40,434 nt of DNA from Eubacteriales bacterium (GCA_045597185.1 JAZODV010000039.1:1-40434); one strand, 5' to 3'. Shown: positions 4,705 through 25,942, counted from the first letter of the stretch. The notes: generated by a model not told the origin, from the letters alone. Translations and numbers: made by a program.

Positions 4705-5323
4705 ACATATACGGATTCAGCATATATCCACGTTTTGTATGTATTATCAGCTTTCTGTCAATTATGGCAAAAGCCTTTTTATTAACGGTACAAATATGTG
4801 TTGATAAGCAATTATTGCTGATTTTCAAAAGCTCAGAGAATGTTTCATAAACGATAGGGTTTTCTTTAGACGAAACGAGAAACTTAACTATAGCGTAGTC
4901 GGTTTTTGATAGAGAAAGAGGATAACCGAGAAGTCTGATGTTGCGGCTTTTTTGCTCAAATTTCAGCACACCGTACGAAGTTGAAAAAGAAAAACATCTG
5001 TGTATAATTTGCTTAAATATATTTTCGTCACATGGAATCGTAATTTGTCGATCAATTCCCTCGATCTCCCTGAATCTCGTGGATCCTTTGACAGCAACGG
5101 CTATGTTTGCAAATGGAATTTTATCGTGGATACCTTCACATATACGTTCAACGTCTGAACGTGACGCTTCATCAAGAAAAATGAGAAAGTTTTTTATTTT
5201 CAAATCTTTAAAAAATTCTATTTTGGAGTCATAAACGAAGAAAAGAGGTATTATTCCAATCTCTGAAAGTGCTTTTTTAATAAAAATATTAAAATCGGAA
5301 TTGTGTGAATATACAGCTATCAA
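4703..5323 (-). CDS. Degenerate receiver plus OmpR-like winged-helix regulator
   Basis: C-terminal LSKTDYAIVKFL...LSTHICTVNKK...IIHTKRGYML resembles the OmpR/PhoB DNA-binding domain; has RBS AAGGAG and its own promoter. Confidence 0.55.
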   Translation of the reverse strand: MIAVYSHNSDFNIFIKKALSEIGIIPLFFVYDSKIEFFKDLKIKNFLIFLDEASRSDVERICEGIHDKIPFANIAVAVKGSTRFREIEGIDRQITIPCDENIFKQIIHRCFSFSTSYGVLKFEQKSRNIRLLGYPLSLSKTDYAIVKFLVSSKENPIVYETFSELLKISNNCLSTHICTVNKKAFAIIDRKLIIHTKRGYMLNPYM

Positions 5324-21386: not shown

Positions 21387-21844
21387 AACTTAACAATAAA
21401 ATCAAAAACACTATGAAGCTTACGTTGCCGTCTTTATCTGCAAACGAAGGTATGGCGCGTGCTGCGGTAGCCGCGTTCTGCTCTCAACTCGATCCTGCCA
21501 CCACAGACCTTGCCGATATAAAATGTGCGGTATCGGAGGCGGTAACAAACTGTATAGTACACGCATACAAAGATGCGGTTGGCACTATATACATAACGGT
21601 AAAGCTCATGGAAAACGGATACGTTCATATAGAAATACGGGACAGGGGCTGCGGTATTCCGGATGTTCAAATAGCGCGTCAGCCGTTGTATACCACGGAT
21701 GCGGAAAGCGAACGCTCGGGACTTGGATTTACGGTTATGGAAAGCTTTTGCGATAAGGTGAAAGTAAGATCAAAGCAGGGCGTTGGAACGACAGTCGTTT
21801 TGATCAAACAGATAAGTCATAAAGGAGAAGAAATAAAGCCTTGA
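21383..21844 (+). CDS. spoIIAB: Anti-sigma F factor SpoIIAB
   Basis: SEAVTNCIVHAY, DRGCGI, ERSGLGFTVMESF and GTTV. Confidence 0.95.
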   Translation: MKLNNKIKNTMKLTLPSLSANEGMARAAVAAFCSQLDPATTDLADIKCAVSEAVTNCIVHAYKDAVGTIYITVKLMENGYVHIEIRDRGCGIPDVQIARQPLYTTDAESERSGLGFTVMESFCDKVKVRSKQGVGTTVVLIKQISHKGEEIKP

Positions 21845-22578
21845 ATGTTGCAACCCAAGAAACCGACTTTTCAAAAAATATTGAGCTTATAAGCGCAGCC
21901 CATAACGGCGATACTGATGCTGAAAGTCGGCTCGTCTCCGACAATATCGGGCTTGTAAGAAGTATAGCGTTACGTTTTTGCGGAAGAGGGATTGAGCTTG
22001 ATGACCTTATGCAGATAGGAATACTCGGACTTGTAAAAGCGATAAGGAGCTTTGATGCTGATAGAGGTTTTGCTTTTTCTACGTATGCGGTACCTCTTAT
22101 AATGGGCGAGATAAAGAGAACTCTAAGAGACGAAGGCCTTATAAAAGTGGGAAGAGCGCAGAAGAAGCTTGGCAAGGATATTTTGATGCTAAAAACACAG
22201 ATTATGAACGATGAGGGAAGGGATCCGGGAATTGCAGAACTTGCAAAACTGTGTAACGTAACGGCAGAAGATGCGGCTATGGCACTTGAAGCTATATCGC
22301 CCGTTGCCTCTCTTTCTGACCCCATAGATGGGGACGGAAATTTTACTCTTGAAAGCAAAATACCAGATTCCGAGAACGAGATAGAGAAAATATCAGACAG
22401 AATAGCTCTTTCGCAAGCGATATCAAAATTACCTGAAACGCAAAAGAAAATTTTGATCTTGCGCTTTTTTAAAGGTAAAACGCAACAAAAAACAGCATTT
22501 GAGTTAGGGCTTTCTCAAGTGAAAATATCAAGAGAAGAAAGAAAAATACTAGAGTTTTTAAAGGGAGAGTTAATATAA
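21841..22578 (+). CDS. sigF: Forespore sigma factor SigF
   Basis: DDLMQIG, FSTYAVPLIMGEIKR and SQVKISREE; third gene of spoIIA; TTG start after AAAGGAG. Confidence 0.9.
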   Translation: MNVATQETDFSKNIELISAAHNGDTDAESRLVSDNIGLVRSIALRFCGRGIELDDLMQIGILGLVKAIRSFDADRGFAFSTYAVPLIMGEIKRTLRDEGLIKVGRAQKKLGKDILMLKTQIMNDEGRDPGIAELAKLCNVTAEDAAMALEAISPVASLSDPIDGDGNFTLESKIPDSENEIEKISDRIALSQAISKLPETQKKILILRFFKGKTQQKTAFELGLSQVKISREERKILEFLKGELI

Positions 22579-22600
22579 TTCACAAAAATAAGCGCTCAAA

Positions 22601-22617
22601 TGTAAACAAAATGTTAA
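22601..22617 (+). promoter_or_regulatory. OmpR-family direct-repeat box (WalR/PhoP-like)
   Basis: TGTAAA-N5-TGTTAA matches TGTWAH-N5-TGTWAH, 17 bp upstream of a -35. Confidence 0.45.
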
Positions 22618-22634
22618 AAATGTTGTCAAACCTC

Positions 22635-22663
22635 TTGTGCAAGTTAAGAACTTGTGATAGAAT
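22635..22663 (+). promoter_or_regulatory. sigmaA-type promoter of the putative sRNA
   Basis: TTGTGC-N17-TAGAAT with TG extension; no ORF downstream. Confidence 0.65.
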
Positions 22664-22669
22664 ATGAGC

Positions 22670-22826
22670 ACAATAAATATTAGTAACATTGTCTTGGTAT
22701 CGGTCCCCCCCTCTATGCCGACGCCATAACTTGTTTTAGTCTGTCGGGTTCGAAGCTATCCGTATCGAATCAGTCAGACACGACCCGACTCGTTCCCCCC
22801 CTTAATGCGAGTCGGGTCGACCTTTT
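22670..22826 (+). ncRNA. Putative small RNA with three hairpins and two C7 loops
   Basis: Promoter; stems at 22695-22726, 22739-22779 and 22781-22819; loops TCCCCCCCTCTATG and TCCCCCCCTTAATG; followed by CCTTTTCT. Confidence 0.65.
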
Positions 22827-22830
22827 CTAT

Positions 22831-22871
22831 AGAATTCGAGCCACAGCAAATTTTGCTGTGGCTCGAATTCT
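22831..22871. terminator. Perfect 20-bp-arm hairpin, terminator for lepA and/or the sRNA
   Basis: AGAATTCGAGCCACAGCAAA-T-TTTGCTGTGGCTCGAATTCT. Confidence 0.75.
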
Positions 22872-22873
22872 TG

Positions 22874-24694
22874 TTATTGGTCTTCGGAATCAAGACGGAG
22901 AACTGCCATAAACGCTTCGGGAGAAATCTGGACAGAACCTAGCTGACGCATCTTTTTCTTTCCTTCTTTCTGCTTTTCAAGTAGCTTCTTTTTACGCGTT
23001 ATATCACCGCCGTAGCATTTTGCAAGAACATCCTTCCTCATAGCCTTGACGGTTTCTCTGGCGATTACTTTACCGCCTATCGCCGCTTGTATTGGAACTT
23101 CAAAGAGCTGACGCGGTATGTTTTCCTTAAGGCGTTCAGCTATCTTTCTTGCGCGGGGATATGCCTTTTCTTCATGAACGATAAACGAAAGCGCATCGAC
23201 CTGATCTCCGTTTAACAGGAAATCAAGCTTTACAAGCTTTGACTTTCTGTATTCGAGGATCTCATAATCAAGAGAAGCATAGCCTCTTGAACGGCTCTTA
23301 AGAGCATCAAAGAAATCATAAATTATTTCGTTTAGCGGTAACTCATAATGTAGGTCTACACGTGTCTGATCGAGATATTTCATATCAACAAACGTTCCGC
23401 GTCTGTCCTGACACAGCTCCATAAGACCGCCCACATAATCAACCGGCGTTATGATGTGCGCGGTTACTATAGGTTCTGACGCGTAATCTATTTCATCAGG
23501 CGTGGGGAAATTAGTCGGATTGTCGATCTTGATAAGATCTCCGTTTCTGAGCTTGACCTCGTAAATAACGCTGGGAGCTGTCGTTATAAGGTCAAGATTG
23601 AATTCACGCTCAAGTCTTTCTTCTATGATCTCCATATGAAGAAGTCCCAGGAATCCACAACGGAATCCGAACCCGAGGGCAATTGACGTTTCAGGTTCAA
23701 ATATAAGCGCTGCATCGTTAAGCAATAGCTTTTCAAGAGAATCGCGAAGATCACCGTAGCGCGCTCCGTCAGCGGGGTAAATACCGGCATACACCATCGG
23801 CTTTGCTTGCTTAAATCCGGGAAGAGCCTCTTTTGCGGGATTGGATGCAAGTGTTACGGTATCACCGACGCGAGTGTCTCCTATACTCTTTATACTTGCG
23901 GTAATATAACCGACCTCACCTGCATAAAGCCTGTCCGCCTTGGAAAGTCCGAACGTCTCCATATGACCGACATCCACTATCTCGTATGTTTGTCCCGTAC
24001 TCATCATTTTGATTACGTCACCCGAAGCAACGCTTCCGTCCATAACTCTTACATAGACAACAACGCCAAGATAGCTGTCATAGTATGAGTCGAATATCAA
24101 TGCTTTCAGAGGAGCGTTTTCGTCACCGTTTGGAGCGGGAATATTAGCAACAATATCGTCAAGAACATCGGATATATTAAGACCTGTTTTGGCAGATACC
24201 TCAGGACAGCCTTCAGCCGGGATTCCTATAACGTCTTCAATCTCATCTCGAACTCTGTTAGGATCTGCAGACGGAAGATCTATCTTGTTTATAACAGGTA
24301 GTATTTCGAGTCCTGCATCTGCCGCAAGGTATGCGTTTGCAAGAGTTTGTGCCTCAATACCTTGAGTTGCGTCAACAACAAGGAGTGCGCCTTCACACGC
24401 GTTAAGCGAACGGGATACCTCGTAGTTAAAGTCAACGTGTCCCGGGGTGTCTATAAGATTAAGAATATAGTCCTCTCCGTCGGGTGCAGAGTAGCTAAGC
24501 CTTACAGCTCGAGCTTTAATAGTAATTCCTCTTTCCTTTTCAAGATCCATATTATCAAGCATCTGTTCTGACACATCGCGCTTCTGTACCGCTTCGGTCG
24601 CTTCAAGCAAGCGGTCGGCAAGCGTCGATTTTCCGTGGTCTATGTGGGCTATAATAGAAAAGTTACGTATGTTTTTTTGCTTTCTTTCTGACAT
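22874..24694 (-). CDS. lepA: Elongation factor 4 (LepA)
   Basis: [28 protein letters not shown] and [13 protein letters not shown]. Confidence 0.98.
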
Positions 24695-24844
24695 GCTTTT
24701 CTCCAAGTATTTTTAATTACCCATATTATATAATATTTTTCAAAAAATCACAATAATATTTTTTAAAAATTTTCAAATTCTATTGATTTTTTTGCGTTTA
24801 TACTATATAATGTCGGTGTCACAATGACAGAAAGGGGATGTATG

Positions 24845-25942
24845 ATGTCAAAAATCAAAAAAAATGCCGCAATCATCGGCTTTGGCGGAATGGGATCGTG
24901 GCATGGAAAACATTTTGTAAAAAGTGATTGTGTAAATCTTGTCGGAGTATACGATATTCTCGGACTTGAAGGAATAAGAAAGGACCGCAGAGAGTTTCTT
25001 GAAGAAAACGGAATACGTTTTTATGAGTCTCTTGAAGCAGTATTGGACGATAAAAGTGTTGATTTTATAACGATTGCAACGCCAAACGACAGTCATAAGC
25101 CTATTGCACTTAAGGCAATGTCTGCAGGTAAGCACGTTGTTACGGAAAAGCCTGTCGTTCTTAACAGCTCCGAGCTTGAAGAGCTTATAGCAGCTTCGAA
25201 AAAGTATAACGTTATTTTTACAACTCATCAAAACAGACGTTGGGATGCCGATTATCTTATGATGAAGGACATATATCATTCGGGGAATCTTGGTAAAGTG
25301 TTTAGCATTGAATCAAGAGTACAGGGCTCTCGCGGAATTCCGGGTGACTGGAGAGGAAAGCCTGAACATGGCGGCGGTATGATACTCGACTGGGGCGTTC
25401 ATCTTATAGATCAGATCCTCGGTATAATAGATGATAAAAAGCTTTTGTCGGTGTACTGCAAGTGCGATCATATAACAAACAAGCAGGTTGACGATGGCTT
25501 TAAGCTTGATATGTACTTTGAAGATGACGTCGTTGCTCGCGTTGAAGTAGGCACAAACCATTTTATAAGCATTGGCAGATTATATATGGTCGGTTCTGCA
25601 GGCTCTGCAATCATAAAAGATTGGCACGATGACTGCCATGAGATCATTTGCACTGAATGGAAAGAAGATAACGTAACTCCCGTTGTTACTGCTGCGGGTC
25701 TTACGAAGACTATGGCACCGCGTGACGCAAAAACGACAGAGGAGCGTACCATTTCGAGATATACGTCGAATGTACACGATTACTACCGCAATTTTGTAAA
25801 AGCAATAGACGGAGAAGAGGAGCAGCTTATAACTCACAATCAGCTTCGCCGTTCTATGATGATAATGGAAGCCGCTTTTGAATCCGATAGGCTCGGCAGA
25901 CCTGTTGAGGTAAAGGATATTTCGGCTCCCAGAAAGAACTGA
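24845..25942 (+). CDS. Gfo/Idh/MocA family oxidoreductase
   Basis: IIGFGGMG, ATPNDSH, EKP, NRRWD and GGGMILDWGVHLID; start 24842 or 24845. Confidence 0.92.
   Translation: MSKIKKNAAIIGFGGMGSWHGKHFVKSDCVNLVGVYDILGLEGIRKDRREFLEENGIRFYESLEAVLDDKSVDFITIATPNDSHKPIALKAMSAGKHVVTEKPVVLNSSELEELIAASKKYNVIFTTHQNRRWDADYLMMKDIYHSGNLGKVFSIESRVQGSRGIPGDWRGKPEHGGGMILDWGVHLIDQILGIIDDKKLLSVYCKCDHITNKQVDDGFKLDMYFEDDVVARVEVGTNHFISIGRLYMVGSAGSAIIKDWHDDCHEIICTEWKEDNVTPVVTAAGLTKTMAPRDAKTTEERTISRYTSNVHDYYRNFVKAIDGEEEQLITHNQLRRSMMIMEAAFESDRLGRPVEVKDISAPRKN

Follow-up and report, generated by a model that had tools for sequence, protein, structure and literature searches.

A predicted small RNA with two exposed C-rich loops, conserved in one uncultured genus of Clostridia

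Several small RNAs of Firmicutes, among them RoxS/RsaE, FsrA and CsfG, have C-rich regions in the single-stranded parts of their structures (PMC4409812, PMC8216469, PMC4152353). For RoxS/RsaE and FsrA, binding to G-rich ribosome-binding sites is either described or proposed (PMC4409812, PMC8216469, PMC4152353, PMC8583004), and the target of CsfG is given as still not known in the parts of the literature cited here (PMC3574147, PMC4409812, PMC8216469, PMC9147052). CsfG corresponds to the reverse strand of the Rfam 'ylbH leader', RF00516 (PMC3574147), and LhrC of Listeria belongs to the same broad class of small RNAs (PMC4132741).

The locus described here lies in a stretch of 40,434 nucleotides from an Eubacteriales bacterium (GCA_045597185.1, JAZODV010000039.1:1-40434), the whole of which is referred to as the window. 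The source assembly is incomplete (1.6 Mb, 200 contigs, 72.7% complete), and sister species are recorded publicly as uncultured Eubacteriales, Clostridia, Oscillospiraceae or Lachnospiraceae bacteria. The original prediction, made from the sequence of the window, placed a promoter-driven small RNA with three stems and C-rich loops downstream of sigF. The interval runs between a sigF-like gene (stop codon at 22578) and a convergent lepA (stop codon at 22874). It is free of ORFs as predicted, with none of at least 40 aa across 22579-22804, which rules out a coding region. The features referred to below are, in window coordinates:

21841-22578, plus strand: sigF-like sigma factor gene (Pfam), last of the spoIIAA-spoIIAB-sigF operon; a neighbour, not part of the RNA
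22601-22606, plus strand: TGTAAA box, candidate UP-like element or activator site, found at 9/9 homologous promoters
22635-22640, plus strand: -35 hexamer TTGTGC, kept as TTGnnn at equal spacing in 9/9 homologues
22655-22663, plus strand: extended -10 element TGaTAGAAT, kept as TGnTAnAAT in 9/9 homologues
22670-22828, plus strand: predicted sRNA of ~155-160 nt (fold z -6.87; 155 bits with covariance model R1, 116 bits with R2)
22695-22726, plus strand: hairpin 1, with two G-U pairs and a 12-nt loop (22705-22716, CCCCCCCUCUAU) that holds a C7 run at 22705-22711
22739-22779, plus strand: hairpin 2, with a conserved base GUCUG/CAGAC and a top of varying length, followed by the junction ACACG
22781-22819, plus strand: hairpin 3, with 12 Watson-Crick pairs, one closing G-U pair and a 13-nt loop (22794-22806, UCCCCCCCUUAAU) that holds a C7 run at 22795-22801
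22820-22828, plus strand: conserved tail, ACCUUUUCU
22831-22871, no strand assigned: hairpin of 19 pairs separating the sRNA from the convergent lepA, called a plus-strand terminator by a simple scanner

No Rfam family covers the RNA. Searched against Rfam 15 at gathering thresholds, the window contains two tRNAs only, and a permissive scan of 22500-22950 returned six sub-threshold matches, the best of which (rli61, 25.6 bits against a cut-off of 50) falls mostly on the terminator hairpin. RsaE and ylbH are absent from 22500-22950 even at E <= 10. When 12 homologous or weak-match loci were compared with Rfam, no family and no RF00516 was found; a match to ncr1175 (27.2 bits, cut-off 60) extends over hairpin 3 and the terminator in one homologue (G007), and nothing else matches at the homologues' RNA. 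Across the whole 1.6-Mb genome, RF00516 (gathering score 50 bits) has no match at E <= 10, with a B. subtilis control above the cut-off, and RF01820 (79 bits) has none at E <= 1 with 85 candidates scored. By covariance model, the RNA is neither CsfG/ylbH nor RsaE/RoxS. In the parts covered, the literature searched on CsfG and C-rich sRNAs holds no description of this RNA, which cannot show that it is absent from print.

Of 151 other Clostridia genomes, 20 also give sub-threshold matches to the RF00516 model, at 28-37 bits and consistent within genera (including loci L036-L047). Those shown have a common core, AGAGGAGAAAUUGAAGGAAGAGCUCUAUGGGGAA, on the model strand. These matches look like diverged CsfG genes missed by the 50-bit Rfam cut-off, and their core on the CsfG strand (UUCCCCAUAGAGCUCUUCCUUCAAUUUCUCCUCU) is unlike the RNA studied here.

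The plus strand of 22670-22830 is predicted to fold into three hairpins, at the coordinates originally given for them, with a minimum free energy of -56.8 kcal/mol. Dinucleotide shuffles reach -32.3 +/- 3.6 kcal/mol (z -6.87), and none of the 200 folds as well. The minus strand folds at -46.2 kcal/mol (z -1.96), and 6 of 200 shuffles match it. The stronger fold supports the plus orientation that had been proposed, and the G-U pairs of hairpins 1 and 3 form on this strand only. The C-runs of hairpins 1 and 3 are predicted to be unpaired with probabilities of 0.99 and 1.0, respectively.

Homologues of the RNA, scoring 60-155 bits, were found in 9 of the genus's 10 species genomes. The region was recovered by blastn in three of the nine other genomes, a covariance model built from four sequences (R1) located the RNA in five more, and a second model (R2) was built from all nine. 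The tenth genome, G005 (90% complete), yields a 20-bit terminator-like match only and has no such RNA after its sigF. In the model-fitted alignment of the nine sequences, 93.8% of pair cells are standard, and shifting the 3′ partners by 1-3 columns lowers this to 30-38%. Both sides change in 20 of the 29 pairs, and none of 500 column shuffles reaches the observed values. Such an alignment leans towards the structure of its own model, and MAFFT with RNAalifold was therefore run on the raw sequences as an independent comparison. The same three helices emerge, with 26 pairs of which 17 are compensatory. Compensatory double changes affect 5/9 pairs of hairpin 1 and 9/11 pairs of the main helix of hairpin 3, and 4/7 modelled pairs of hairpin 2 covary; its base, GUCUG/CAGAC, is replaced by GUUUG/CGAAC or GUUCG/CGAAC in G008 and G002. 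Chance hairpins are ruled out by the shuffle z and the covariation. On this comparative evidence the RNA gene is real, and the separate structured gene that had been predicted is conserved, with its own promoter motif, in nine of the ten genomes.

Throughout the homologues the stems vary in sequence, and what is kept is the C-runs of the loops, the hairpin 2 base, the junction ACACG and the tail. Both C-runs are predicted to be unpaired in 9/9 homologues (probability 0.86-1.0), as the original prediction had it for this RNA. Loop 1 is conserved as CCCUCUA(U/A)(G/A) with 2-4 extra C before it (interrupted in G001), and its CCCUCUA is invariant. Loop 3 keeps a run of C5-7 and is variable outside it. 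The near identity of the two loops, a prominent part of the earlier description, is seen in the source genome (G000) and its nearest relative, G004, and does not extend to the other seven homologues, in which loop 1 reads CCCUCUA(U/A)(G/A) and loop 3 shares a C5-6 run only. After hairpin 3 the tail reads ACCUUUUCUAUAG; among the homologues it takes the form CGACCUUUU in 6/9, GCCCUUUUU in G008 and G002, and CACCUUUUU in G006.

The predicted promoter, TTGTGC-N17-TAGAAT with a TG extension, is present upstream of the RNA. The TG occupies 22655-22656 and the -10 hexamer 22658-22663, with a spacer of 17 nt from the -35, and the form TTGnnn-N14-TGnTAnAAT is common to all nine homologues. A simple promoter scanner misses it because the -35 matches the consensus at only 3/6 positions. 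The promoter looks like a housekeeping sigma-A type with an extended -10, and not like a forespore type. No motif resembling the usual sigma-F/G consensus sequences was seen at the nine homologous promoters. Transcription from this promoter would begin near 22670, about 7 nt past the -10, and would end at the U tract.

The TGTAAA box lies 17 nt upstream of the -35 in seven genomes and 28 nt upstream of it, one helical turn further, in G000 and G004. In the source genome, the SRP RNA gene (contig C24, 5292-5556; 159 bits) is also preceded by a TGTAAA box and an extended -10 (C24, about 5227-5290), and a loose regular expression finds 11 promoters of this layout in the genome. Because the SRP RNA gene shows the equal layout, the box may be a UP-like element of strong RNA-gene promoters.

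Hairpin 3 and the U tract, which the homologues retain, are likely the intrinsic terminator of the sRNA. In G001, the next promoter begins about 20 nt past the U tract, and no second terminator is called before it. A further GC-rich hairpin with a U tract was seen downstream by eye in 8/9 homologues, and the scanner confirms it in G008 and G007. Here this is the 22831-22871 hairpin, which had been assigned to lepA as a terminator of its own. The hairpin is indeed there, and the scanner also calls it on the plus strand; we read it as a bidirectional terminator and a possible back-up for the sRNA. Since a second hairpin with a U tract follows the sRNA, some transcripts may be about 200 nt long and end at this hairpin.

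In what was searched, the RNA family does not extend beyond a single uncultured genus of gut Clostridia that form spores. R2 was run on 150 genomes each from the family (97 genera), the order and the class, and no match outside the genus exceeded 33 bits. These large searches used the stricter filters of Infernal with about 20 candidates scored per genome, and still picked up members of the genus, at 95-131 bits with R2 and, in one case, at 64 bits with R1. The weak matches from outside the genus (33 bits or less) are without the promoter, the twin C-loops or both, and one of them, in G044, was set aside as a single C5 hairpin loop and nothing else. Two exact-pattern scans covered one genome for each of 185,579 species. 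The first returned 11 loci, of which 5 are real, and the second 39, of which 8 are real, and every real one comes from the genus. Seven further matches of the second scan (five labelled Clostridia, Ruminococcus or Oscillospiraceae, along with L067 and L060) look like chance by eye. A looser pattern run over metagenomes gave one real locus among at least 118, which repeats the sequence of G007.

In 28 other genera of the family, the RNA is absent downstream of every best sigF-like match. At one of these loci (genome G072, L277:1316-1500, minus strand), the sigF-like gene is followed by an unpaired C7 run with CCCCACCCC, a long hairpin and a tail, CCGACCGACUUUUUAUUU, which resembles that of the present RNA; a promoter is not apparent. 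It is the only one of the 28 genera's loci with such a C7/CCCCACCCC stretch and a terminator after sigF, and blastn does not find the stretch in the four other genomes of its genus. Either a remote relative or a C-rich 3′ UTR of independent origin could account for it.

The reading put forward for the RNA is that of an independent regulatory sRNA whose C-loops pair with G-rich Shine-Dalgarno regions and block initiation without Hfq, a reading to which we give about an even chance of being right. A strong sigma-A promoter with an extended -10 would drive an RNA of ~155-160 nt, which would fold into three hairpins, loops 1 and 3 each presenting 5-7 unpaired cytosines, and hairpin 3 with the U tract would end the transcript. 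The C-loops would then pair with a limited number of mRNAs at their G-rich Shine-Dalgarno regions, and this pairing would block translation initiation with no need for Hfq. Pairing of this kind is proposed because of the analogy with RoxS/RsaE, FsrA and CsfG. The Hfq family (PF17209) was found in 0/10 genus genomes, five of them with a completeness of 90% or more, and control genomes gave the expected result; this fits an Hfq-independent action.

Candidate targets were sought with a crude gene call of the source genome. Among 1324 genes, GGGGG lies within 20 nt upstream of the start in 48 and GGGG in 119. The best predicted duplexes include those with a MerR-family regulator on contig C80 (AUAGAGGGGG, -21.5 kcal/mol), spoIIGA (GAGGGGGG), an ECF-type ABC ATPase and spoIIID (UAUAGAGGGG). 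Around the RNA itself, the ribosome-binding sites of spoIIAA, spoIIAB, sigF and lepA are not G-rich and give duplexes of -3 to -6 kcal/mol. Three sites that are complementary to the loops in the source genome were followed across the genus, namely those of spoIIID, spoIIGA and an oxidoreductase (24842, AAGGGG), and none is kept beyond G000 and the closely related G004. The last of these bears on the G-rich ribosome-binding site that had been noted before 24845: it is real, at 24830-24837, and is not a general feature of the gene, as orthologues outside G000 and G004 use GGAGG or AAGGA. The start of this gene, a GFO/IDH/MocA oxidoreductase, is probably the ATG at 24842 or 24845, behind GAAAGGGG (24829-24847), where the ORF lister chose 24824. 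Upstream of spoIIID, all eight genus genomes in which the gene was found (L087, L091-L097) also have a conserved CATATAT(T/A) motif ~30-40 nt before the start, which resembles a mother-cell (sigma-E type) -10 element.

The exact 9-mer complement of loop 1, TAGAGGGGG, is rare in all genomes of the genus. In G002, G004 and G008 its sole occurrence is at the coordinates of the sRNA gene itself, and across the nine other genus genomes the few matches, whose neighbourhoods were inspected in part, show no shared gene. Because the 9-mer is so rare, a conserved mRNA site of perfect complementarity does not account for the conservation of the 12-nt loop 1. The same word is several-fold rarer than its backward-read counterpart in every genus genome searched (for example 1 versus 9 in G001, G002 and G004).

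The failure of these searches (spoIIID, spoIIGA, oxidoreductase and TAGAGGGGG) to find a conserved complementary mRNA site also bears on a different kind of partner. The RNA could instead be a sponge or scaffold whose C-loops, junction and tail are bound by a protein that is titrated or guided, for example the KH-domain pair KhpA/KhpB; we regard this as unlikely, though well worth weighing. Consistent with it, the CCCUCUA of loop 1, the base of hairpin 2, ACACG and the tail CGACCUUUU are conserved in sequence and not just in pairing. The conservation of the hairpin 2 base, the ACACG junction and the tail exceeds the needs of simple seed pairing, and could reflect a protein partner or a fixed three-dimensional shape. 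KH domains often bind C- or pyrimidine-rich single strands, and the KhpA/B KH-domain family is present in 10/10 genomes of the genus, as forms of about 80 aa in all 10 and of 225-250 aa in 8. However, KhpA/B is widespread whereas the RNA is found in one genus, and nothing ties the two together. The variability of loop 3 outside its C-run suits base pairing equally.

That the G-rich ribosome-binding sites are not conserved in the three cases tested would also agree with base pairing to some other G-rich partner, such as coding regions, 5′ ends or another small RNA, with the RNA acting as sponge or anti-sponge. RoxS is itself under the control of an RNA sponge in B. subtilis, so RNA partners other than mRNAs exist in this class (PMC8216469). 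Yet no candidate partner was found, and there are few G-runs: the 40-kb window has 3 copies of AAGGGG where shuffles have 10.5 +/- 3.4, and one of the three is the antisense of the RNA itself. Pairing outside ribosome-binding sites is judged improbable.

The gene neighbourhood speaks to whether the RNA acts in trans at all. Upstream of it lie ligA and genes for a STAS-domain anti-anti-sigma factor, an anti-sigma F kinase and the SigF-like sigma factor, and lepA follows on the other strand. The kinase scores 183 bits with NCBIfam spIIAB, above its cut-off of 135; the sigF-like gene is matched best by NCBIfam spore_sigF, whose 232 bits fall short of the equivalog cut-off (321). The position downstream of sigF that the original prediction emphasised applies directly in 4 of the 9 genomes (G000, G004, G008 and G002) and with one intervening gene, for an ECF transporter S-component, in G009. 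It does not apply in the other four: in G007, G006 and G003 the RNA follows an aminotransferase gene and an S-component gene, with sigF of G007 on another contig, and in G001 it follows the gene for V-type ATPase subunit D. Downstream, there is a convergent lepA in G000 and G004, a pseudouridine synthase gene in G008 and G002, a gene for a LytR_cpsA_psr protein in G001, and an unknown ORF of 142-157 aa in G007, G006 and G003. Since the neighbours differ among genomes, the link to sigF looks ancestral but dispensable, and no single gene has the RNA as its leader.

No terminator is called between the sigF stop codon (22578) and the sRNA promoter, and likewise in G008, so that transcripts of the spoIIA operon may also run through the sRNA. 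Such read-through, and the adjacency to sigF in up to five of the genomes, would suit a cis element of the sporulation operon, in which a structured 3′ UTR or terminator of spoIIAA-spoIIAB-sigF stabilises or ends the mRNA and has no role in trans. This is very doubtful given that the RNA keeps its own extended -10 promoter in 9/9 homologues, lies away from sigF in four of the nine genomes, is missing from G005 although sigF is there, and does not follow the best sigF-like match in any of 28 further genera of the family. A riboswitch or cis-regulatory leader of the downstream gene would account for the multiple hairpins, the conserved loops and the terminator-like hairpin at the end, and is hardly credible because lepA is convergent here, the downstream genes differ among genomes, and further terminators or fresh promoters separate the RNA from the next gene.

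The preferred reading, a C-loop regulator acting on ribosome-binding sites, can be carried further by speculation. The RNA might be a genus-specific regulator wired doubly into sporulation, once through a constitutive promoter of its own and once as the ancestral 3′ end of the spoIIA (sigF) transcript. Its twin C-loops might clamp two G-rich sites of one partner, or KhpA/KhpB, and so set, without Hfq, which mRNAs with G-rich ribosome-binding sites (here including spoIIGA and spoIIID) are translated when sigma-F is made. This fuller picture is a long shot.

More immediately, a well-supported, covarying sRNA family is added to the Clostridia. To our knowledge, few trans-acting sRNAs of Clostridia are known outside C. 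difficile and the solvent producers, and we know of none from uncultured gut lineages. Here the design with exposed C-runs appears again, in a lineage where Hfq was not found, which supports C-rich loops as a general route of Firmicute sRNAs to ribosome-binding sites. The practical reach is limited, as the family belongs to one uncultured genus and its targets are candidates only.

Compared with the described systems, the RNA shows no detected sequence or model similarity to FsrA of B. subtilis or to LhrC, which has CU-rich loops (no Rfam match at gathering score), and their regulation by Fur and LisRK has no visible counterpart at this locus. It shares with RoxS/RsaE (RF01820) unpaired C-rich regions, including hairpin loops, which in RoxS/RsaE are thought to bind G-rich Shine-Dalgarno sequences, and RoxS/RsaE acts without a proven need for Hfq, as far as the cited accounts go (PMC4409812, PMC4152353, PMC8583004). 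The RNA differs in being longer, with three hairpins, in having C5-7 runs where RoxS/RsaE has UCCC/CCCC motifs, and in its different conserved loop, CCCUCUAUG. RoxS/RsaE is found in Bacilli and Staphylococci (PMC8216469), whereas this RNA belongs to one genus of Clostridia. CsfG (S547), of B. subtilis and other endospore formers, resembles it in coming from a spore-forming Firmicute and in having several C- or CU-rich stretches, placed in loops or between helices, along with a few hairpins and a terminator (PMC3574147, PMC4409812, PMC8216469, PMC9147052). However, CsfG is driven by sigma-F and sigma-G (PMC8216469) whereas the promoter here appears to be of the sigma-A type, and the genomic neighbours are different. 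Ultimately, this RNA is a new, narrow family within the known sRNAs of Firmicutes with C-rich regions, and not a new kind of system.
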